Assembly: GCA_001687465.1 (NCBI GenBank)
Contig: LVLI01000095.1
Location: forward strand, 1-64,000
Source of the DNA: Halocafeteria seosinensis
Lineage: Eukaryota
DNA length: 64,000 bases
Reading direction: 5' to 3'
Shown: positions 21,711 to 62,626 of the stretch, piece after piece
Numbering within the stretch: the stretch's first letter is position 1
Layout: every line of letters begins with the position of its first letter
Made by a program: the position numbers and the translations under genes
The notes under the pieces: model-generated
The model's input: the letters and a program-made list of their open reading frames with translations, nothing else
Database searches by the model: none
What the model was told of the DNA's origin: nothing

Positions 21711-23927
21711 ATGGTACTTCGGTCCGTTGCGACTGCCCTGCGACCAACAGTCAAGTGCATCATGCATGATGCATGCTCATTGGGCACCAACGATTTGATA
21801 GATCTGGCTCCGAGATTGACCCCCATAGTGTAGAGCGAACCGGCAATGAAACGTATAAGAGTACTTGCCGTCATATACCGCTTGGAACAGGGGCATTGGA
21901 GGGCGTATGCCAACGGAGTTTGGTTCTCGCTGACTATCGAACTTCATGAAGCTCCTGAACCACAACAACCTCCATCGTACAGGGAGATCCGTATCCATGG
22001 TGCCAGTGTAAAAGGCAATGGAGACGGGGAAGACAATACATTCGATGTAAGGGGAGATTTGGCCAATGCCCAGTACTATTGGGATCAGGTGGAGCCCCAG
22101 AAGAAGTATGTCAGCACACAAACAAACAAGCAGCACTATGTATTTCGATAATTGAGTTGACTTTGATATCATCTCTACGTACAGGTTTTGCGCATTGCAG
22201 CGAGAAGGCGCCAAAGATGGCAGCTACGGGTTTTACTTCCACACATTGACGGACTCGGATGCAGTAACCAATGTTGTCTCATTGGCAATACCACCCAGTA
22301 TGTTGGCTACATGGAGGAGTGTTTCGTGGATTTGACTGTCGTTTTATCTATTTTGATGAGTACCCACAGAATATCGTCCAGGTGGGAAAGAGAAGCAGTC
22401 TGGGTCTGTCTCTGGTGCCACTGGTACTGCTGAATCGAAACAGACGGTTACAGCTTCTGAATCTTTCACCACATCAACTGAAAAGAAAGAGAAGGAGGGA
22501 ACCAAAGCAGAGGACGATAACGTTTCAAGCGCTGCTGCGCAGAGTAGTTTTCCGTGTGATTCTCTTGCTTCCGAGGGGGAAGGTTCGGCGACAGCTCAGT
22601 ACCAACCAGCAACTGCTGTATCAAGGACTGAAGAGGATACGGTACTACAGGAAGAGAAACAAGATACGACATACCGGCAAAATAGCGCATACGAAGAATA
22701 TTCGAAAACTATATCCGGTACTGCAACGGAGAGTACACAGAGCTCGTCAGTTACTCGCGTTACTCATCGACCTGTGGTTCCCAGTAAATCGCCACCAGGT
22801 GACAGCAATTACGAAAAAAACTTGACTTCTATGCCATCGGATACTACTGTATCGGACCAGCTTCAAGCAGATCCTGTTGCCAAGGCGTATGAGGATGCAA
22901 CTACACCCAGCGGAGGAGAGAGCACTGGCTTTTCGAAAGATCGAGCCCCTCAAAAACTAGATACGACAATCTCGTGGAAACAAGAGAATACCGGAGGAGA
23001 GAAGGGAGCAATAACACCTCCGTCTTCGGTTGAACACATACACCGTGTTTGTTACGATTTTGACAAGGCCCGTTTTGTTGGACTGCCTGAAGGATGGGAA
23101 AAGGAAGTATCTCAGTTTGGAACAGACTGGAAGACATGCCCAAAAAAGTAGGTGCCGGCATTGGTCCAGGAATAACTTACTCGGTTAATTGACAATTGTT
23201 TGGATTGCACAGGATGGTTGAAGGGTACGGGAAAATTCCTGCAGTATTGGAGGTGCTACGAGCGGAATTTCTGGAAAAAGAAGGCTACAAATGCGAAGGC
23301 ATATTTCGTTTGGCATCCGACAAGCGTCAGGCTGTAGAGATAAAGAGACAGCTAGACTCTGGTTCTTTTGATGGCCGTGGTACCGTGGATCCATATGTTG
23401 CTGCGGACTTGATCAAAGTAAGATGGTCAAATGCTGTCGCTAAAGCAAAGAACAGGTATGTTACCTGGGCCTCCCACCGATAATGTTGCAGGTGTGGTTC
23501 CGCGACCAGCCTGAACCACTGCTTAATTCGCTTAGTGAGTCGGTGATCCGAGAAGGTCAAAGCTCTACGGAAAATGCTGGGAAAGTAATCACGGAAAAAA
23601 TGCACTATCCCCAATCTGCACTTTTTGTTTGGCTCTTGGACATACTACTGACGGTTGCTGATTGTCCGGAAAATCGCATGAACATTCATAATCTGGGTAA
23701 GGCTCATCATGTTATTGTATGTATTACAGTCTAATGGTGTTCTAATCGAATTCTACCGGGATCGTTCCACAGGAGTAGTTGTATCGCCGAATTTGTTTCA
23801 CAAAGAATTCTCAGATCCCCATAGGCTTCTTCACGTCACACAAAGTGTGTCCGAGTTCGTGAAGAAATCTTTGGCTTGGCGCAGCAATAACCGCGAGTGG
23901 CCGCCGTATACTGAACAAGGTTCATGA
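21711..23927 (+). CDS. RhoGAP with CRIB/PBD motif and probable N-terminal WH1/EVH1 domain, multi-exon
   Basis: ITPPSSVEHIHRV...FVGLPEGW (PAK-type PBD); EGIFRLA, VAADLIKVWFRD.PEPLL and NRM.I.NL..VVSPNL (RhoGAP); N-terminal AVIY...W...YGFYF. The start is inferred. Confidence 0.8.
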
Positions 23928-25972: not shown

Positions 25973-26487
25973 CCCCAGGAAATACTGTCCGGAGTCCTTT
26001 ACTTTCTTATGATGATCAGATCTATGACACTACAAAGGAATGATTCTGCTGGTAAAGTGGAGCTTCTCTTATTTGTTTCACATCAGACGAATCGATGTAC
26101 GGCGCTGTAACCGAGAACCCAGTGTTGGGCGATGTCAGGTTGTAAAAGAAACTGAAGCGAGCATTCAGGGTTTTGGCAGAGTTGCATTCCTGCTAGCGAC
26201 CCCATGTATGCACACTCTTTAGATGATGGATATGTATTCTTGCTCGGTAAAATGATGCGTTTCGAAGTGCGCTTCCTGCCACTCCAGTTACAAGTGGAAG
26301 TTGAAGTATCCACATCCTGAGAGTCTGAGACCCAAGCTGAGCGCCAAGTACGATTAGGTTGGTCTTGTTGGATAGGAAAACCCGTCTCTAGCAACGAAAA
26401 TAAATAAATATAGACAGTACTTACATATGTGGAGTAGCGTAGTAGACTCATGAGTGACTAATTATGCCTGTAGAGTGACAAACAGCA

Positions 26488-28037
26488 ATGAGCGCCCTGC
26501 AGAATACCTCAGTTTCTGGTGCCATGCACGAGGGGGATGATACAACGAATGCAGGTATAATCTCCAGGACCTCTTCTTTATCCTCTGAAGAGTCTCAGGG
26601 TGCCACGCATAGCGGCGTTGAGGGTCAGGATATGGACGAAAATGGAGGCACCAGTACGCCACTCCCCTCCCCATCCTCAGTACGCAGTTTTGATAACAAT
26701 GGACGCACCGGTCATTCCATGGCTTCGCCAATGGCTCCTGTAGCCCCTCGAACAATGCAGACCATGATGGACCTGGAGGATCATAACAGTACTCCGCGAG
26801 GAAGCCGCATCGGGGGCGCTACCGCCTCCAAAACGGACCCCCATTCGGAGCCCCAACGTGCATTAAGTGAAAAAGAAAAGAAACAGAGGCTTAGGACAGA
26901 AAATGAACGTCAAGAAAAGTGGCTCAAAATGCTGAGCAATTGGGATGAGTTTCTGAAAAAGAATGAAAAGAAAGTGAAATCTCGATGCAGGAAAGGCATC
27001 CCAGAAGCCATACGAGCCCATGCATGGCCAAAGATTGTACGAAGCAATAGACACCGCGACGAGCAGCCAGGATTATATGCACAGTTACTAAGAAGCTCAC
27101 CGACGGCCGAGCAGAAGGAAGTAATCGAGTATATCGAGCGAGACATCTACCGGACTTTCCCACATTACCCATTGTTTGCTACCCGAGGTGGAATCGGTCA
27201 AACGTCCCTTTATCGAGTACTCCGCGCTTATGCCGCGTACGATAGTGTGGTGGGGTACTGTCAAGGAATGGGCTTCATTACAGCTATGTTTTTATCCTAC
27301 ATGCCAGAGGAGGAAGCATTTTTCATGCTGCTTACAGTTATGCAGTTTCCCCCTCACAAGTTACGAGAGTTGTTTGTACCAGGTTTACCGGAAGTGCCCA
27401 TAATGCATTATCAACTGAAGGTATGTTAAGTCACTTAAGTGTTTCGATGTGGTTGCCTCTTTGCGTACTGTACGATACCATGGATGCTGCTTGCTGAGAT
27501 GGTCTACAGGGTATGATGCGATTAAAGCTACCCAAGTTATACAACCATTTTGAGAACGAAAACGTGGATCCGAGCATGTACTCGACTCATTGGTTTCTTA
27601 CAGTCTTTACGTACAATCTGCCGTTCCACCTGGTTGGTGCGTAGTGTTTTGCGACAACGACGCTGACAAAAGATTATGATTTACGCATGTTTATCTGAAT
27701 CCTGCAGTTAGAATCTGGGACGCATTTCTCTTCGAAGGCTGGAAGATAGTGTTTCGTGTTGCACTAGCATTGCTTCAATTTGCTCAAGGTATGCAGGCGA
27801 TCATAGTTTTCCAATGGCTTCTATGTTATACATGCTTACTCTCTTCTGTTTGCAGATGACCTTCTAGACCTCTCTTTTGAACATATTATGAAATATTTCC
27901 GTCACCTGCATGAAAAGGTGGATCCTGAAAGAATAATGTTTTTAGCTTTTAAGCTTAATATCAAACGCAAGCAACTGGAGGACTTGAGGCAGGAATACCT
28001 GACTTCCGTAAAAGGCGATGCTGCTGAAGGGAATTAG
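26488..28037 (+). CDS. TBC-domain Rab GTPase-activating protein, multi-exon
   Basis: KGIPEAIRAHAW, IERDIYRTFP and GYCQGM motifs; downstream exons give WFLTVF, RIWDAFLFEG. Confidence 0.92.
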
Positions 28038-51067: not shown

Positions 51068-51486
51068 AAGCATGTCTACCGCATAGTGTTTCTCTTCAAG
51101 AGCAGCATACTACTTGAGAGAAAAGGAGTTACACGGGGAAAAGGTCAAGGTACCCTCTTTTTGTACTGCCATATGGTACAACCCCGTGTATGTATATGTA
51201 CGTGGAAGAATCCAAGTGCACGCGGCTGCCAAGCAGACGCACGTGCGGTCGGTCGCACGGTTGTAGAACACAAGAGACTGTGGGTGAATAGTTTGTCACT
51301 ATCGATTATGTTTGATACCATAAATATGGAAAATTTACGCGGTTGCTGGGTGGGGAGGTTTTCATTCGTCATTTTTCTTTTGGAGTGTACTCGTCGCTTG
51401 AATATATAGTCTACAGGTGCGATTTTTTTTTGTTTCTTGGCTTCTGAAACCCTTGCAAGAGACAGCGCGTTGCACGGGGAGCCATA

Positions 51487-52893
51487 ATGCAACCAGATAA
51501 CGATGTCGTCAAGTCGATGATGGCCGAGTTGGAGGAGGAGGAGAAAGAAGAGGGTAAAGATGCACCGAAAGAAAATAGCCCGTCGCAAGCGAAATACACC
51601 TACTATTCCGGCGCGGCGGACTCATTTGGCGCGTTGCAGCACGTGAGAGCCTCGGCCACCGCCGCCCACGCCTCGTCCAGTACTGTCAACTCGAACATAG
51701 GCTCCCGAGAGAAGTCCCACAGCTATACAGCACCCCGGGACGACATGGAGGAAGAGAGCTCCGAGGATGACAGCAGTAATTTGGGAGCAGAGACCTTCGC
51801 CAAAGGGATCCGGGTACAACACCACAGTGGAAGTGGACGGCACTCGTCAGGGTATCTGGCGGAGAGCATTGTCGGCGGCGGTGCAGCGCACGGCTTGCGC
51901 GCGAAAGAGGAAGCTGAGTCGGTACGCAGTTTTGTGCATCAGCCGGGGGAGAAGGGGCGTTTTACAATGGTATGTCGTTTCAGAAGTGTGAACGTGAACA
52001 ATCGACACCCAGACAGGGCAGCTTCTTGCTCTGTGTGAATATGCAGTGTTATATAATAAGGAAAAAGCATTTGGTGGGAAACCCGACGTATTATGTCTAC
52101 TTGGAGAAGGATGACCAGTACCTCATGTGCGCTCAAGTAAGGTACAGACATGGATCGGAAATACCGCGGTTGAAGTACATACCCGTTATGTTATGTTCAG
52201 AAACGCAAGAGGAATAAAACTGCTAATTATCTTATTACGCTCGACAAAGAACCTGGGAATCGCGATAACCCGTTGAATTTGGGCAAGGTTCGAGGAAGCT
52301 GGGTACGTAGAGTACATAGCATCGCTAGCAGTGTGTGAGTATTCATGGGTGGAAACGATCCACAGACGGGAGAACATTATACCATCTACGATCAAGGGCT
52401 GAGTTTTGAAGACACTGTTTCTGCCACCTCTCTAAGAAGGGAACTAGGTTTAGTCCGCTTCTCGTATTCCAATACCGGCCCGGGTAGGCTTAGTGTCTTC
52501 CTCCCGAAAGTTTCGGATCTTGGCCATCCTACAGTGATTCGTCCCCAAGAAGAGAAGGAAACGATAGCTAATCGGATACTAACTGAAGGGGAGCCGAACT
52601 TTGAGGTATTGCATAACAAAGAACCTCACTGGGAGGAAAAACTGGGCTCTTACGTGTTGAACTTTCGAAATCGTGTCAAGAGGAGTAGTATCAAGAATTT
52701 CCAGCTGGCTCAAAAGGGTGATGACAAAGTTGTCTTACAGTTTGGAAGAGCTGATAGTAACAGATTCATCATGGATTATCGACATCCTTTAAGTGCGTTT
52801 CAAGCATTGTCTATTGTGTTGAGTACTTTAGATACCAAGATAGCCGACACCGCGGCTTACACGAAGTTCCGTGAGAAGCGGCGTTCTGCGTAG
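51487..52893 (+). CDS. Tubby-domain protein (paralog 2), multi-exon
   Basis: YYVYLE, KTANYLI, NKEPHWEE..GSYVLNFRNRV..SSIKNFQL, LQFGR and FIMDYRHPLSAFQA motifs. The start is uncertain. Confidence 0.9.
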
Positions 52894-53157
52894 ACGACAC
52901 AGCAACTCTCTATAAATCCAATTACTATTCGTGGACAATACTAGCATCACTTTCTCTCTTTTCTGTCGATAGTTTGGGTATTTTGCCAAGTTGGCTTAGA
53001 CTTGAAGCGTGGCGTTTATTGAACAATTCAAACAAAGCCACAATTCAAATGGAAGGCCCTAACCTCTCGACCACTACCATAAACCATGGACCAGGTCGTT
53101 TTGGAAGGACTCCTAGTAACTGAGTGAAATAAAAAAAAACAACGAGAGCCAATAAAA

Positions 53158-54426
53158 ATGCTGTGGGTGGATAAGTATCGCCCAAAGACCTTGGACTCGG
53201 TGGATTACCACAAGGACCTCTCCCAGAGGCTCAAACTGATGGTATGTGAGCTATACAAGGCACTTTTCTGTATTCTGACGCTATTACACGTGTGCATACT
53301 GCAGGCTGAAGGTGGAGAGGTGCCTCACATGCTCTTTTATGGACCGAATGGCGCGGGCAAACGCACTCGTATCATGGCAACATTACGCCAGGTATTCGGA
53401 AATGGCGTCGATAAGGTGAGTCCGTCCCGGTGCATATACACATGATGGTGCTTGTTCAAACCATTCATGTACATACGTGCATGTGTATGCGTGACAGATG
53501 AAACAAGAGTATCGCAATATTAAGGTACGAGCAATTCTTGGAGGTTGGGTTGCACGAGGGAGGGGATATTAGACGTTGTACTTTATGTATGCGTGTACAT
53601 GCAGACTCCTTCAGGACGAAAAATTGAGGTGATCAGTATGGCGAGCAATTATCATATCGAACTCAATGCCGCCGATGCTGGGATCTATGACACGTATGTG
53701 GTTCAGGAAGTCATCAAAGAAATTGCCGCCTTCCGACCATTGGACAGTAAACAGAAGTATAAGGTACTTATCATATCAGAAGTCGATAGACTGACAAACC
53801 AAGCACAAGCAGCACTGAGGAGGACAATGGAACTCTACAGTCGTCAGTGTCGGCTTATCTTATGTTGTTTATCCCCCTCAAAAGTGGTCGAACCAATCCG
53901 ATCCAGATGCCTAGGAGTTCGGGTTCCCGCTCCTAATCAGAAGGAACTGATGAATATTCTGAAAAGTGTAGCAAAAGACGAAAAACTTGAAATCCCTAAC
54001 CAGCTAGTAGCGAGGATTGCTGCCCAGTCGGATCGGAATGTCCGGAGAGCGATTCTTATGATGGAAACTTGCAAGGTGCAGCAGTACCCGTTTACTGCTG
54101 ATCAAGAAGTACAGGTGACTGATTGGGAGCGATATATTGCTTTTCTAGGAAATGATATTGTGGCTGAACAAAGCCCAAATCGCGTTCTGGCTTGTCGCCA
54201 GAAAGTTTACGAGCTCCTTGTGAATTGTATACCAGCGGATGTGATCATCAAGTATTTATGTAAGGAGCTATACCCTAAGGTAAACAACACCATGAAGCAT
54301 GAAATTGCACATTGGGCAAGCCATTATGAACACCAGCTTCGATTGGGACAAAAGGAGATCTTTCATATTGAAGCCTTTATAGTGCGGATCATGAGCCTTT
54401 ATCGACAACACCACGGGAATATTTAG
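53158..54426 (+). CDS. RFC3: Replication factor C subunit 3 (yeast Rfc5 ortholog), with a 27-nt microexon at 53498-53524
   Basis: LWVDKYRP, YGPNGAGKRT, AQAALRRTME, IRSRC and IFHIEAF motifs. Confidence 0.95.
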
Positions 54427-54613: not shown

Positions 54614-56067
54614 TTACTCCAGTGGCTCAACGAAATTGCCGGGAAATACACCCTTCTTTTCCCGTTCATCGTGTCCCTCGTACCAACCATCATCATGCTT
54701 CTTAGTGACGTAGAGCTTTTCCCCAACGAGCAACTCAAGTTCGTCTGCATTTTGAGGCTTGTAAGGATGCTTGACACGTACCGTCTCAATCGATGGAGCC
54801 GGGACGTAGACGGAGCTTGGAGTACTAGACGCTTGGCCTTGGGTGCCCCGATCTGGTGCATCGGGCGCTTGGGGGCGTTCTTGGGCTTCTGCTTGCGCCT
54901 TTGCTTCTCTTTCCTCGTGGGCGTTACGAGTTTCGGATGCACTTCGTACACGCACAGGCTTGGCATCTTTGTTGAAATGGGGCACTTCTTTGACGGCATC
55001 AAGTCCCGAGCCGAATAGTTGTTTCTGGAGCTCCAAAAACTGTATGCCCCGAAGCAATCCTGGTGACGAACAAACAATCATACTCCAGAGATAAAGAAAA
55101 ATTACGCATACCTTGTTTAATTGTGGAGTGATGACTGAAAAGCGTTTGCTTTCTACGAGGTCGAAATCGTTGTACAGTTTTTGGGTGGCTTCGTCTAGAG
55201 TTTGCTTGGCTTTCTCCTTGGCGGCTTCTTTCTCCTCCAATTTGTGGGGATTATTGGATCCTCCTTTTTCTTTCAACTTAGCCACTTCTCGAACATAGGA
55301 ATCGTAGTCAAGTTTCAGGTATTCGCGATGTTGCATCTGCTTGCTCTGCTCTTCCAGATGTCGATTAATGTTCTGCAATGGATCCAGGATTTTGGCGACG
55401 TATTGCTCATCAAAGAGCCGGCGAATTTCATCATCGAGACCTTTCATGTTGTCCTTGAGAACATCGGCTGATTTCTTTAGATCTTCGGGACAGTCGTTGT
55501 CATCATAATGGCTTTCCACCATCTCACCGATCTGAGAACTGGCGAAGCAAAGTGCTGCAATTACGATGTATGCGTCCATTCACTCATCTATTCTCTTTCT
55601 TTCTCTGATAGCGTGACAATTACGTACACCGAATGGCATCCAGATATTTACGGAACTTCTTCTCCATATCCGCATAGTGTTTGCGCAGTGCCACAATCCG
55701 CCGTTTGCGCTCTTCATACTCGGAATCATCCGTGGCGTACTCATTGTTGCCAAATTTACTCCGGACCTGCTGGCCCAATCGGCGCGTCACATTACTGAAT
55801 CGAGTACCGAAACTTTCTCCTTTCTGCGAATGAGAAAAAGGCGTCATTAAGCTCAATAGAATGAAAAACCACCCCAAAAAGAGCACCACTCGTTCAACTT
55901 GAACCCACTCAAAGCACTCTTTTGGGCGTTTCTAAGGGAACAAACGAGGTACGTACAGCTTCTTCACCTTCGTCAGAGGTACCATGGCCACCTGCAGCGG
56001 CGCCAGAGGACTCTCCTGACTTGGCAATGGTGCCAAATGAAGATAGCTTCTGCTTGAAGTTCTGCAT
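54614..56067 (-). CDS. BAR-SH3 protein (amphiphysin/endophilin/Rvs167-like), multi-exon
   Basis: Helical BAR region (TDDSEYEE, KLDYDS) and a C-terminal SH3 (HPYKPQNADELEL..DGWYEG..GVFPGNFV). Confidence 0.88.
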
Positions 56068-56642: not shown

Positions 56643-59600
56643 TCACCGCTCGCCATTCATCAGTTCGGCCATTACCTTGTCATCTTCATCAGACATCATT
56701 TCGAGGTCTTCGCCGGTGAGCAGTTCACTATTCTCTTGTCGTAGTGTTGTACCAAGAGTATCATCTCCAGAGTCACTAGATGCCTCCACTCGTCCAGCGT
56801 AAGGCTCATGTTTTCGTTCGATAAGTCTCTGTAACGCTCTTAGACGTTCTTCGCGATCCCATAGTATGTCAAAAGAGTCCATTCGGACCTGCCCCAAGAG
56901 TGCTCCAACAGAAACGCCGTCGGAAGCAAAACGGCATGCAAACGGGGCTCCACCACCATTAGCTTCTCGTTCTTCCTCTCCTTTGCGAAACGCCTTCAGA
57001 AAGCGCGGAAAATTGTCTCGTTGCAGAAGTAAGAAGATCTCACTTTGTGAGTCATTGAACATCTGGATGTACCCTGAGCACGAGTCAGGGACGTTGGCGT
57101 TGTCGTCCAAAGGTGATTCTGCGCGAAGAGTCTCGACATCCTCCATCAGTTTCCGGTATACAGTGGAAGACAAATTCACCATACAGGGAGAATCCTTCAA
57201 AACATATGTTTGCAATATATCCTCCATCATGCTGATCATCCAACCGAGGTTCCCCTTGCTCGCCGCTAGGATTGCTTCCCTCTTGTAATGCTCAATTGCT
57301 TGATAAAATTGCAGGTTTTCTAAGGCATGCTCATGCTCCAGATGGACACGGAACGCGTTCAATAAGAACGGATGAGCAAGAATGACCGAGAGAGTAATCT
57401 CAGTAGAAGGGGGAGGTGGCGCCACCAAGAACAAGAAGGAGGAAAGAAGTGGAATTTCACCATATCCTAAAACTTGCCCTCGCCTCGACTGTAGGGTGAC
57501 TAGTAGGTCTTGCTGGCCCAACCAATCCGGATCTAGAGCAATCGGCTGAAGATCAGGTAGGTCCTCTTCAAACCACTTTACTAGGCGTCGAGACGCGTCT
57601 GGGTATGTGTTATAATTACGAGGCTGAGAGGATTCGATAGTCGGTAAGTACGGCGCTGTGAAAACTAGTTGCACTGATTCGCCGGCAGGAACGAGCGAGC
57701 GCATGGTGGAACTTCCTGAGTCCGCCCGAGCAACATTAGAACCCAATCCAACTAACGACGCCCAAAGTTGCTCGGAACTCAATACTTTATCTACCAGCAG
57801 TGCGTGCTGTAACGTCACAGTTATTGAGCCTCGATTTCTCAACTTTGTCGTCCTAGGCACATAATAGAAAGGACGTTCACACTCAACTTCGAAGGACGCA
57901 AGTACCGGCCTGTGGTCGCTCAAATTGACCTCTTTTGACGCTCGATACTCAGTATTTCTCACCTTCCTGGTTGACGAGGGGGAGGATCGGTACAGTACTC
58001 GGTCTGTGTATGACGCATTTTGGTTCTTCTTATTCTGAAACGACACGCCTTTTCCACGCTCCAAGCGGTAGGTTGGCGGAAACTGGATTTCAGGCTCAGA
58101 AAATCCGGAAAAATATCCTAGACGCATTTGCTGGCGAAGTTGGTCCGATTTTACGAGAGGACCGTAGTGTTTGGACTCTGCCCATTTCTTCACCTTTTCG
58201 AACTCTCCAGGAGTACCCGGTTTGCCCAGGTCAACACGATAGTTCAAATCTCCCATGAAAAAAATGTGGTCATAAGAATGAATTAGCGGTATATAGCCAA
58301 CGGAACATGACTGACCCTTTCGCGGATAACCGCGTGCTCCAATGTTTAGCGCCTGGATTATAGTCGCATAATCTTGATTCCGTTCAGCAAGCCGTTCGTG
58401 ACGAGCAGCGAGGTGAGCCGAAACAAATGCAAAAGAAGTTGAGTCTCGGTATGTGAATCCAACGGCTACAGCACCTTTATTGCCAAGTACATTTGCAACA
58501 CCTGTAGCAACAGTGTCAACGCTTATGTTCCCTAGATTCTTTGCGACTACGTTTCTGGCGTATAAGAATAAATGAATCCCCCACAATGTAATTTGAGCAA
58601 CAGTGACGTAGTCCTCCGTTGCTTCAGCATTCCGCGGACTCGATGACGCTTGCAGAACTCCTCTGATGCTCTTCAGCCAATCATCCTTGTGATCGCATTC
58701 CTGTAATGCAACGGCGTACAGGTCATATTCCTGCGGAGGAATCCATTCACTAAGTACATGTGTGTCGTAAGTAGGTTTCGAGCCACCACAATTGAACGTG
58801 CCGCACCAGATGCGAAGGGAATCTGGTGGAGGAGCAGCATTTACTATCCCATATGCTCGGACGGAAGAAAAGTCCAACTTGTTCATTACTGCATGTAAAA
58901 GACCACGAAAGGTTGATCGCAGCGATGCCGTGGGGAACTCAATATCCAGAAAGAAACGATCATCGATGTTTTCCGTTTCCTCCTCTGCTGTGTGTGTTGG
59001 AGAGGTGCTGCTGGCGTTGCGTATTACAGGTTTAACTGAATCCTTGAAAAACAGCTTTAAGCGCTCTAACTCGTTACAGGAGGTTTCGATTCTTACATTC
59101 CCCTTGGAGAGGGAGTACTCTTCAACCTGTTTTGCATCATTGAAGTCTTTCTGCCTTTTCAATACTTGCTGCTGCGGATCAATTGTCAAGACGCGCCGTG
59201 CGGACGCCATCCCGTAAGTATGAATCTGTACTTTGAAGGAAACGGCTTCTCCTCCCAAGTCTTCCTTAAAGACGTCGTCCATGAAAACCATGTCTGATTG
59301 CAACAGGTGTGCCAGTAAACAGAAGTTCTCTCGCGCGGACTCTGTGTCAAATTTCAGCGACACCACTCTTTCGTTGGTAGGATTCCGGAAGCACACTCTC
59401 AATACACGGTGGCCCATTTCGGCAACTCGTTGCATGTACTCGATGTCTAACAAATTCTTAGCAAACGAAAGCACCTCCGACTTATAGACTAGTAATTCGC
59501 GCGAATTGATGTTGAAACACAGTTCTCGCGATTGCCATTTGCCAACTCTGTTCTGCTTTAACACGTTAAATCGAGGGGAGTACCACAGTCTCTGCTTCAT

Positions 59601-62600
59601 CGGTTCAGGAGAAGATGACTTGTTAAGGTGTTTTGTATTGTTGCGCAGAAATCGTCGAAACATCGCAGATTGCCGGAAATCGTCTACTTCCAAATTAAGT
59701 TCTGTTCCCTGCAGAAACTCCTCAAAAAGATCCTCGAAGAGTCTGGAGGAAAGTGATGTCTCATTCGCTCTAAACCTCGTCTCATTACCATGTTGGCGCG
59801 CATCAATGTCATTCCCAGCCTCGAGGAAGTGTTGTACAGCATTCGTCAAAGCATAAATCGTCTTGACGGACACAAACGGAGCAAGTTTGGAGCCTGCAAA
59901 AAGATAGCTTTCTTTGAAGTTAAGAAGCTCATTTCGCAATGTATCATCCATCTGCGCTGACGTCAAGCTTTCAAGCAATTTCGTAGACGAGCCTGATACC
60001 AGCGATAATGTGTTCTTGGAAGCTATCCGATCCCAAAAACATTCAAGCAGCGTCTCAAGCTCAGTTCCAAAGCGATACAGCAAGTCAATAGTGTCAGTCG
60101 TCTTGCTTGAGTGGCTCTTGAACGCATCACGGAAGTCCTGGTGCTTGACAAGCTTATACACAGGAGCATCTTCTCCCAATATGGTCAGCTCAAATACATG
60201 CAATAACTCTTCTTTTTGCGCAAACACCTCTTTGATATCTTGTCTTCTGAATGCGATGGTAGTTGCTCCGCTCATGGTCGTTTCTAGGTCGAATCCTACC
60301 GCACGCGGTTTACTACTTGCAAGAACTTCATAGTTTATGCAATCACCACTTGCGTACTTCTTGGTTACAAGTTTTCCGGAAGGACCAGTTTGGGTCATTT
60401 TGATCGTTCCTTGGGTAATAACGTAGCAGTTGCCGTCGTATGTACCGCTTCGCACAAGTACAGAGTTGGATGCATGTTGCGCAAAGCGGCCGTACTTTGA
60501 TAGATCCGAAAGAACGTCTTCAGAAAGGTTTGCTAGTACCTCTACTTGAAGACCGCGAATGCTACTTGCAGCATGAGATGCTATATAGTCTTGTAAGGAT
60601 GCCCTTAAGCCTGGGGTACCGTTCAATAGAGCACTAAAGTGTCGACGGTGTTGCACAAGTAGTAAGCATTCTTGTGTAGCCGAGACAGACGCGGACACAG
60701 GTACTTCTTTGAACAAAGATATTTCCCCAAAATACTCGCCCGATCTTCCTGCAGCAATGCAACTACAAATAAAGCCATCACGCACATCGATTTGTGACCA
60801 GACGCTGTACTCACCTGTCTTCAACTTCCTACCATGCTCTGTGAAACGTACTTCTCCATGAACAAGAATGAAAAATGCATCGCCGGGCGTATCCTCGATC
60901 AGCAAGCTCTCCCTTGAATATCGCGTGACGACGCGGAACGTGTTTGCGATACTCTTCAGCTTGTCTTCGTGAAGACGTTGGAAAAAATTCACGCTTCGGA
61001 GGAACAACATAGTGAGGGAATGTGAACACTCCAAGAGAAACTTCCTCCTGAGGAGTAACCATTTATCGCCAAAGGTATGTTTAACGCTGTTGATACTCAA
61101 AAATAGCACTTGGCTTCCTGGAAACACAGCCAAGGAACAATAACGATAGTTAAGATCCATTCTTCAAAATTGCAAATTTTTTCTTACTTGTTTTTGCTGT
61201 CGCCCGAATTTGGCTTTTGAAGTATTCGTGTGATATAAGAGCTTCGTCGTGAATAATTTCACCGAACTGTAAAAAGATAGTCCGTGGATATACAAAATAT
61301 CAGTAACAATGGAGAGGAAGCTAAGTAAGCGTACCGAAAGATCATAGGAGGACTTGTTTGCATCCTCGATAGCAATGGTACCCTCGACAGGAAGGATAAC
61401 GGATTCAATGAGGTTTCCCTGCATGGACAAGTAGGACAAGCGAAACGGCATGTGAGTCATGGGAATCAATACGGCTATAATTTTCAAGAAGCGCGTACTG
61501 GATAGGTGATCTCCGACCCCGGAGAGACATTTACCATGGTAACACACTGCATCACCAGAGAATGTTCCTGGGGAGAAGCATCCCAAAACATCCGGAAATT
61601 CTGCGGTAGTTTAGGAGATCTGAAGCATTGAACAATACTCTTGCTTTTCAGTTTTTCGTCTCGTATTATAGAAAATCCTGTTTGTCGGTCGAGGTAAGCC
61701 TCCGCTTGTTCGTAGGCTGACGACGCAGTATTGGGGACACCACTGCTCTCCGGAGAGTTTGACTTCCTGCCTCCGTTTCTCGTTGCAGCTTCCTCAGTTC
61801 TGGGGGTTGTTGTCTGTTCTTTTGAGAGTTCCTCTTCGTCTTCACCTCCTGAAAGATCATCCGAGCATATCGAGGAATTGATTCGAACCATTTGTCCGAC
61901 TTTCTTCTTGGTAACGGCGGCAGTTCTGGGATTGACGATGATTTTCTTTCGCTGTGGAGAGGATGTCTTGGCACCTTGCTGAGCAAATTGCGATTGATTC
62001 GATGGGGTGGAGATGACATCACTTTGCTGCTGCATGTCAGTCGGCGAGGCGGTCCCATACGTTCTTGAGTGTGTTTGTAGCGGAGAGGAATGCTCCGTTC
62101 GTTGTTGTTGGTAACTTCCAGCTCCACTGGTGCTACGGCTACGGCTGTCCTTTCTTCGAGTTCCTGGCGCATACTGTAGATCTTGATAAGTGTCACTCGA
62201 ATGCGCTGTCGGAGTGCTGTCATCGTCATAAAATTGGTCTGTGTCATGTCCTTCCCCTTCCGCAACACTTCCACTCTCGGATGCGCTCGAGATATAGTCG
62301 CTCGGGTGCTCCCAGGTGCTCACATTAGTCCGTATATTGTACCAGTAGGGTATCCCCTGTGTATCATCGATGGCTTTGACCCATTCAGGGTTCTTCCACG
62401 TCGATACATTGGTGAGTGGATTGTGCCAAAAGGGTCTCTGGCTATTCTCATCGAAATACTGCTCCCACGGCCATTCAGCATGCTTCACCGCCTCGGGGTC
62501 CACGCCCTCGGGGACCTCCCAGGAGCATTCACCTGTGACTGTATTGTACCAGAAATAGTCGCCTGTGGCAGCATCCTGCAATGGACGCCACTCCGCCGCG

Positions 62601-62626
62601 GCGGGGGCTGAGGGACTGTTGTCCAT
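56643..62626 (-). CDS. Multidomain inositol polyphosphate 5-phosphatase: WW x3, cNMP-binding x2-3, degenerate RGS-like, PH-like, 5-phosphatase, C2 with inserted RGS; multi-exon
   Basis: WW repeats (W...YWYN..T..STWE.P); GDAFFILVHG...GEYFGEISL (cNMP); GTFNCG, GNKGAVAV, FVSAHLAA, FFMGDLNYR, SYTDRVL and SDHRPV (5-phosphatase); EHALENLQFY...VNLS...RDNFPRFL (RGS). Confidence 0.88.

Follow-up and report, generated by a model that had tools for sequence, protein, structure and literature searches.

To our knowledge, few direct G-alpha effectors are known outside animals. The C2 domain of SHIP2 increases turnover by way of hydrophobic contacts with the phosphatase and of a polar path that connects R649 with E862/F855, and the phosphatase-C2 interface positions listed in the sections of PMC5550278 concerned with this contact include E836/V838/A840 and F855/E862. 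In the RGS-RhoGEFs of Entamoeba and Naegleria, a canonical RGS domain serves both as a GAP and as the handle through which G-alpha engages its effector (PMC3641396, PMC9283941). An RGS-homology domain and an enzyme are nested in the GRKs (PMC5795056), while oomycete GPCR-INPP bigrams fuse parts of G-protein signalling to an inositol polyphosphate phosphatase (PMC6033456), both according to the portions of these reports that describe their architecture. The inspection of a 64,000-nt stretch of DNA (the window, hereafter) revealed a protist gene in which an RGS domain is almost certainly nested within a SHIP-type C2 domain.

Gene model and domain order

The region containing the RGS and C2 domains corresponded to the final exon of a spliced gene (56643..62626, minus strand) with a 1899-aa product. 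Its five exons (62626-61499, 61418-61335, 61266-61188, 61117-60815 and 60748-56643) were delimited by four GT..AG skips in the X1 and X3 contigs. All four introns lie upstream of the phosphatase, C2 and RGS segments, and in the contigs from which they were spliced out these segments were continuous, with no joint. These joint-free contigs ruled out that the insert was an intron or an assembly artefact; further, no in-frame GT..YAG pair flanking the RGS was found in the stretches searched. The X1, X3 and X4 contigs are spliced, though no run is on record as RNA, and all four runs (X1-X4) come from one study. X2 is near-identical DNA that may be the source of the window, and thus does not count as independent evidence. 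The rebuilt five-exon coding sequence matched database record P0002 save for two substitutions. The RGS and C2 segments are part of a minus-strand open frame of 1506 codons, to which all the peptides quoted in an earlier note on this DNA also belong. Two sites differed among X1-X4 and P0002, namely 56888 (Val/Ile, in the last C2 strand) and 58352 (Ala/Ser, in the phosphatase).

The N-terminal part of the protein contains three WW domains (62303..62596, minus strand; Pfam WW in three stretches, E 5e-22), followed by three domains of the cNMP-binding type, the first of them degenerate (60228..61624, minus strand, with introns within the span; Pfam cNMP_binding in three stretches, E 3e-21, and family alignment). 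The second and third were judged by the phosphate-binding Arg motif that we take to characterize cNMP domains. In the second domain (60618-61007, minus strand) this Arg was absent in every aligned row that has the domain, while in the third (60228-60560, minus strand) the Pro-Arg pair was kept in most aligned rows. This suggests that only one of the two may bind a nucleotide. A putative second, degenerate RGS-like helical unit (59634..60170, minus strand) was deduced from relatives, the aligned region of P0123 matching an RGS profile with E 1.7e-7. It was undetectable by profile search in P0002 itself, and BLAST found no resemblance between it and the inserted RGS. Two weak PH-like units follow (58863..59591, minus strand), recognized from conserved blocks in the alignment. 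The first matched Pfam PH with E 0.05, and PH_29 at the equivalent position of P0005, P0122 and P0123; the second gave no Pfam match in P0002. The inositol polyphosphate 5-phosphatase domain was clear (57876..58820, minus strand; PF22669, E 2e-61), its best PDB matches being SHIP2 and SHIP1.

Directly downstream, and on the same strand, lies a BAR-SH3 gene of the endophilin/amphiphysin type (54614-55957, minus strand; spliced intron at 55823/55957). Animal proteins of this type bind 5-phosphatases, although the adjacency of the two genes may be due to chance. A Tubby-domain gene (51448-52893, plus strand; PF01167, E 3e-41) is located about 4 kb away; in animals, Tubby proteins associate with PI(4,5)P2 and are responsive to signalling by G-alpha. 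Other genes in the window code for an RFC3-like protein (53128-54426, plus strand) and a TBC RabGAP (26479-27429, plus strand), and a weak PBD match was found at 22360-23151 (plus strand). No G-alpha gene was detected within the 64,000-nt window. G-alpha pattern matches in the viral collection were all attributable to chance (nine of nine).

The RGS insert and the C2 domain

The front part of the C2 domain (57423..57827, minus strand) comprises strands 1-6, a basic loop equivalent to CBL3, and a short helix, which in the AlphaFold model correspond to residues 332-457 (strands) and 459-466 (helix). It was identified by a partial PF24147 match and by phmmer to 5okm. The Pfam C2_SHIP1-2_2nd alignment (E 6e-4, below the curated cutoff) reached only model position 74 of 106, ending directly before the RGS. 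The front part is followed by a 157-aa insert (56952..57422, minus strand; model residues 467-623) containing a canonical RGS domain (core at about 57395-56985; PF00615, E 3e-15, above the cutoff), located between C2 strands 6 and 7. The closing hairpin of the C2 lies immediately beyond (56871..56948, minus strand), with strand 7 at 56948-56922 (model residues 625-633) and strand 8 at 56915-56871 (636-650). Alignment, profile, AlphaFold and structural superposition all support this assignment. Next come a post-C2 helix that is kept in the family (56808..56855, minus strand; alignment, and AlphaFold helix 656-671 at low confidence) and an acidic tail. The earlier note had recognized a SHIP-like C2 after the phosphatase, which the partial PF24147 match, the alignment and the models bear out. 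It was also right about the RGS insert, whose limits are now 57422-56952, but it began the C2 at 57700, whereas the domain starts upstream, at about 57830.

In an unguided MAFFT alignment, a gap of some 150 columns opened over the RGS, and the last hairpin of all 24 non-RGS relatives (picked from 117 matches, mostly for their compact C2s) fell on the post-RGS segment. A family profile of this segment matched a hairpin profile built from 54 uninterrupted relatives at 97% and E 1e-10, while the best non-overlapping control window of 131 reached 10.8%. When the RGS columns were omitted, the C2 profile score rose from 103 to 136; 29 control pieces reached at most 106. For P0003, P0004 and P0005, the post-RGS segment was the top match of the hairpin profile, with none of 500 shuffles equalling it in each case. 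Of the 13 family members other than the window protein, 11 scored above 2 bits with the profile. Taken alone, the hairpin of the window protein was weak (-2.6 bits, reached by 44 of 500 shuffles). The resumption of the C2 strands after the RGS, as the earlier note had proposed, is thus upheld by MAFFT, by the profile comparison and by two AlphaFold models.

The first of these models, based on a 39-row alignment, had a pLDDT of 89.8 and a pTM of 0.89. A control model from a family-only alignment (pLDDT 80.8, pTM 0.76) placed the same two strands after the RGS and showed the same topology, which rules out that this topology arose from alignment bias. Residues 1-650 of the first model superposed on the phosphatase-C2 of SHIP2 (5okm) with Z 40.3 and an rmsd of 2.6 over 414 of 435 residues, the SHIP2 structures probably being within the AlphaFold training data; the control model gave Z 37.9 (412/432). 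The models follow the phosphatase-C2 of both SHIP2 and SHIP1 through the last strand, over 412-425 residues. Against C2 domains from other proteins, residues 331-654 aligned with otoferlin C2A (Z 9.4, rmsd 2.8, 119/126) and the model aligned with the stand-alone C2 1wfj (Z 10.4, rmsd 2.7, 129/136), in both cases across the RGS split. The insert itself matched RGS4 (1agr_H; Z 10.5, rmsd 1.8, 116/116) and 4gou (Z 11.5, rmsd 2.2, 125 residues aligned). The two flanks are therefore predicted to form one intact C2 beta-sandwich, packed against the phosphatase in the manner of SHIP; flanks that failed to fold into a single sandwich, the outcome that the earlier note named as refuting its proposal, were not seen in either model. 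The arrangement in which two domains stand in tandem, the C2 being truncated, was ruled out by the alignment, the profile match and the superposition. Pfam reports a truncated C2 in the RGS-carrying proteins because a whole domain sits in the strand 6-7 loop. In the type II C2 topology this loop and the lipid-binding loops occupy opposite ends of the domain, and the insert would not necessarily hinder contact with the membrane.

Family, residues and possible coupling to G-alpha

Thirteen other metagenomic proteins carried an RGS at the same C2 site, after the same short helix; P0121 and P0125 are partial and lack the closing hairpin. A fourteenth carrier, P0201, belongs to the cluster of P0119. 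The phosphatase domains of the carriers were 40-67% identical to that of the window protein, and the insertion site, with its short helix-linker-RGS junction, was shared by no fewer than six divergent groups. A profile search, which covered only proteins of 4235-5000 aa, found no further members. In a quick tree of phosphatase domains (5 of 128 rows were dropped for containing too little phosphatase), the metazoan SHIP proteins formed a clade with an SH-aLRT value of 97 and the RGS carriers lay in a separate 49-row clade (96), whose named relatives are Triparma proteins, suggesting that the gene comes from a stramenopile or a related protist. To judge from its sequence, the window protein shares the fold of the SHIP type without being an ortholog of SHIP. 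On this tree the 11 testable rows require two changes for the RGS insertion, which may nonetheless have had a single origin.

Several of the matches showed other layouts. P0060 has a long Tcp10_C-like insert inside its C2. In P0027 the order is cNMP, RGS-like, PH, phosphatase and C2 front, and the gene call apparently enters an intron exactly at the start of the would-be insert. P0129, P0131, P0134 and P0162 contain 8-16 tandem RGS domains each.

The residues that characterize PF22669 5-phosphatases (catalytic Asn, Glu, His, Asp/Asn, Tyr, Asp and His) were present in the window protein, and all eight catalytic positions checked were intact. The protein is predicted to be a 5-phosphatase, with lipids as its presumed substrates. 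Loop L4 is seven residues shorter than in SHIP2, with Lys/Gln at the positions of R682/N684. The equivalents of other SHIP2 residues, read from the sequence alignment with an offset of 417, were Ile (F593), His (L597), Gly (R649), Asp (H820), Leu (L822) and Glu (E836). The F855/E862 positions, placed by an ungapped end-to-end offset of the 5okm superposition, correspond to Arg/Ser and lie within the post-RGS hairpin. The CBL3 acids D829 and E832 of SHIP2 are replaced by Arg and Leu, so that the acidic residues expected for PKC-type Ca2+ binding are absent, and the CBL3-equivalent loop contained Lys/Arg in 14 of 14 rows.

The interface positions of SHIP2 bracket the insert, E836/V838/A840 immediately preceding and F855/E862 immediately following it. 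By this alignment both neighbours of the RGS are strands that contact the phosphatase in SHIP2, yet the known polar relay is gone. Binding of G-alpha to the RGS could pull on the flanking C2 strands, altering the catalytic rate through the C2-phosphatase interface. In favour of such a switch, Glu/Asp occupied the E836 position in all 14 rows, the model retained the SHIP orientation of phosphatase and C2, and the long final helix of the RGS (589-620) ran into strand 7. Nevertheless, the R649 position was Gly or Thr in each of the 11 rows that have it, and the His at L597 and the short L4 also weigh against it. Low-complexity linkers join the RGS to the hairpin in P0015, P0126, P0127 and P0128, and very long loops interrupt the RGS of P0004 and P0120, features that argue against tight coupling. 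We consider this switch unlikely. The same applies to its fullest form, a G-alpha-gated 5-phosphatase in which the RGS would be wired into the C2 strands contacting the catalytic domain, G-alpha-GTP would directly switch lipid dephosphorylation and also time its own shut-off, and cyclic nucleotides would be a second input; there is perhaps one chance in several that it holds. If true, this would give PLC-beta a counterpart among the phosphatases, in a branch of the eukaryotes whose G-alpha effectors are largely unknown.

In sequence the insert matched RGS8 and RGS4. It keeps the equivalents of E83, L159 and R167 of RGS4, presumably G-alpha switch contacts, as well as those of E87/N88, N128 and D163, which are named as key G-alpha contacts in the relevant passages of PMC10794492 and PMC8252600. 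All seven contacts were intact in half of the 14 rows, the window protein included, while N88 and R167 were lost in four (P0015, P0126, P0127 and P0128). P0015 and P0127, the two in this degenerate subgroup with a full phosphatase, keep the catalytic Asp. By contrast, two of the ten rows with a phosphatase, P0005 and P0122, had Asn in place of this Asp (D607 of SHIP2); since they retain the full RGS contact set, they might be pseudophosphatase GAPs. Loss of the GAP residues and loss of the catalytic Asp occur in different relatives, all of which retain the layout, so the two activities do not always go together.

The retention of the insert in the four rows with degenerate GAP residues, together with the second degenerate RGS-like unit upstream, would suit an RGS fold that binds some other partner, or the N-terminal half of the protein itself in an autoinhibitory manner; some RGS domains are known scaffolds, as stated in the part of PMC3971589 that deals with them. 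However, the window protein and six other rows keep the full contact set at 26-55% RGS identity, a pattern that suggests selection for binding to G-alpha and makes a pure scaffold very unlikely. The intact GAP residues and the RGS-RhoGEF precedent render a G-alpha-binding role plausible, and the canonical RGS probably binds G-alpha or acts as a GAP.

The strand 6-7 loop measures 8 aa in the SHIP rows, but in many relatives it is longer, by as much as a total length of 63 aa. Both flanks were found in 69 of 107 non-RGS relatives, and in 24 of these 69 the loop exceeded 12 aa. The insertion site may therefore reflect tolerance rather than design, and a loop insertion carries less weight as a sign of allostery. 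An ordinary GAP might simply have settled in this tolerant loop, with the phosphatase-C2-PH body as its membrane anchor and no control of the phosphatase by G-alpha. Other nested domains are in line with this, such as the PH (355-447) and PX (648-725) between the C2 strands of P0089 and the PX inside the phosphatase of P0040, as is the retention of the GAP set by P0005 and P0122 with Asn at the catalytic base. On the other hand, the site and its junction are kept across the divergent groups mentioned above, and G-alpha bound to a tethered RGS would localize the enzyme too; a mere passenger thus seems doubtful. With regard to the earlier note, the grafting of an RGS into a SHIP-like C2 stands, whereas the SHIP2-style allosteric tuning it envisaged, given the Gly at R649 and the Arg/Ser at F855/E862, is less well supported. 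The relay is not conserved, the loop tolerates insertions, and GAP and catalytic residues are lost independently, all of which weaken the case for allostery.

The reading that we favour is that of a 5-phosphatase acting as a self-timing G-alpha effector and GAP, mainly through membrane recruitment, which we hold to be almost an even proposition; that phosphatase output depends on G-alpha through recruitment is rated slightly lower. The Ca2+-independent basic C2 loop and the PH units would hold the enzyme on acidic lipid. Lipid-anchored G-alpha-GTP would then dock on the RGS, itself tethered to the C2 at both ends, and the phosphatase-C2 unit would thereby be drawn to the part of the membrane where the G protein is active. 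There the enzyme would remove 5-phosphates from PI(4,5)P2 or PI(3,4,5)P3 locally while G-alpha remains active, and the RGS would end the signal by speeding the shut-off of the bound G-alpha. The cNMP and WW domains might provide further inputs. The family is a concrete candidate for linking heterotrimeric G proteins to phosphoinositide turnover, and its natural variants, which differ in whether the GAP residues are intact or degenerate and in whether the catalytic Asp is kept, make the coupling testable. Since the strand 6-7 loop of a SHIP-type C2 accommodates a whole domain, it may also be useful for probing SHIP C2 function.

Comparison with known systems

An architecture combining an RGS with a 5-phosphatase, a C2 and this insertion was not found in our full-text searches, although a published survey or supplement may mention it. 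The section of the PMC3971589 supplement that lists RGS architectures includes C2-RGS and cNMP-RGS combinations but no Exo_endo_phos. The arrangement is thus a conserved architecture made of known parts, a variant of the SHIP-type phosphatase-C2 unit that has apparently not been described so far.

The GPCR-INPP bigrams contain an N-terminal receptor domain instead of an RGS and show no nesting. In the GRKs the topology is the inverse, the kinase being inserted in the RH domain, while in the window protein the RGS is the guest. The long form of RGS3 and nematode RGS-7 also combine C2 and RGS in one chain (ESM Atlas lead 0.81, all Atlas leads being under 0.9), but according to their listing the domains are in tandem and there is no phosphatase. 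The Entamoeba/Naegleria RGS-RhoGEF (4gou) is likewise a protist enzyme with a canonical RGS, whose double role may extend to the window protein; its output, however, is Rho exchange, and its RGS is separate and terminal, not nested. SHIP1 and SHIP2 (INPP5D/INPPL1; 5okm, 6xy7) share with the window protein the order of 5-phosphatase and C2 and, in the predicted model, the same packing (Z 40). The window protein differs from them in the RGS inside its C2 and in its WW/cNMP N-terminus; no SH2, SAM or PF24150 appeared when the full-length P0002 was scanned against Pfam with a limit of E 10. It also differs in its shorter L4, in the absence of the R649 relay and of the CBL3 acids, and in its position outside the metazoan SHIP clade in the quick tree.
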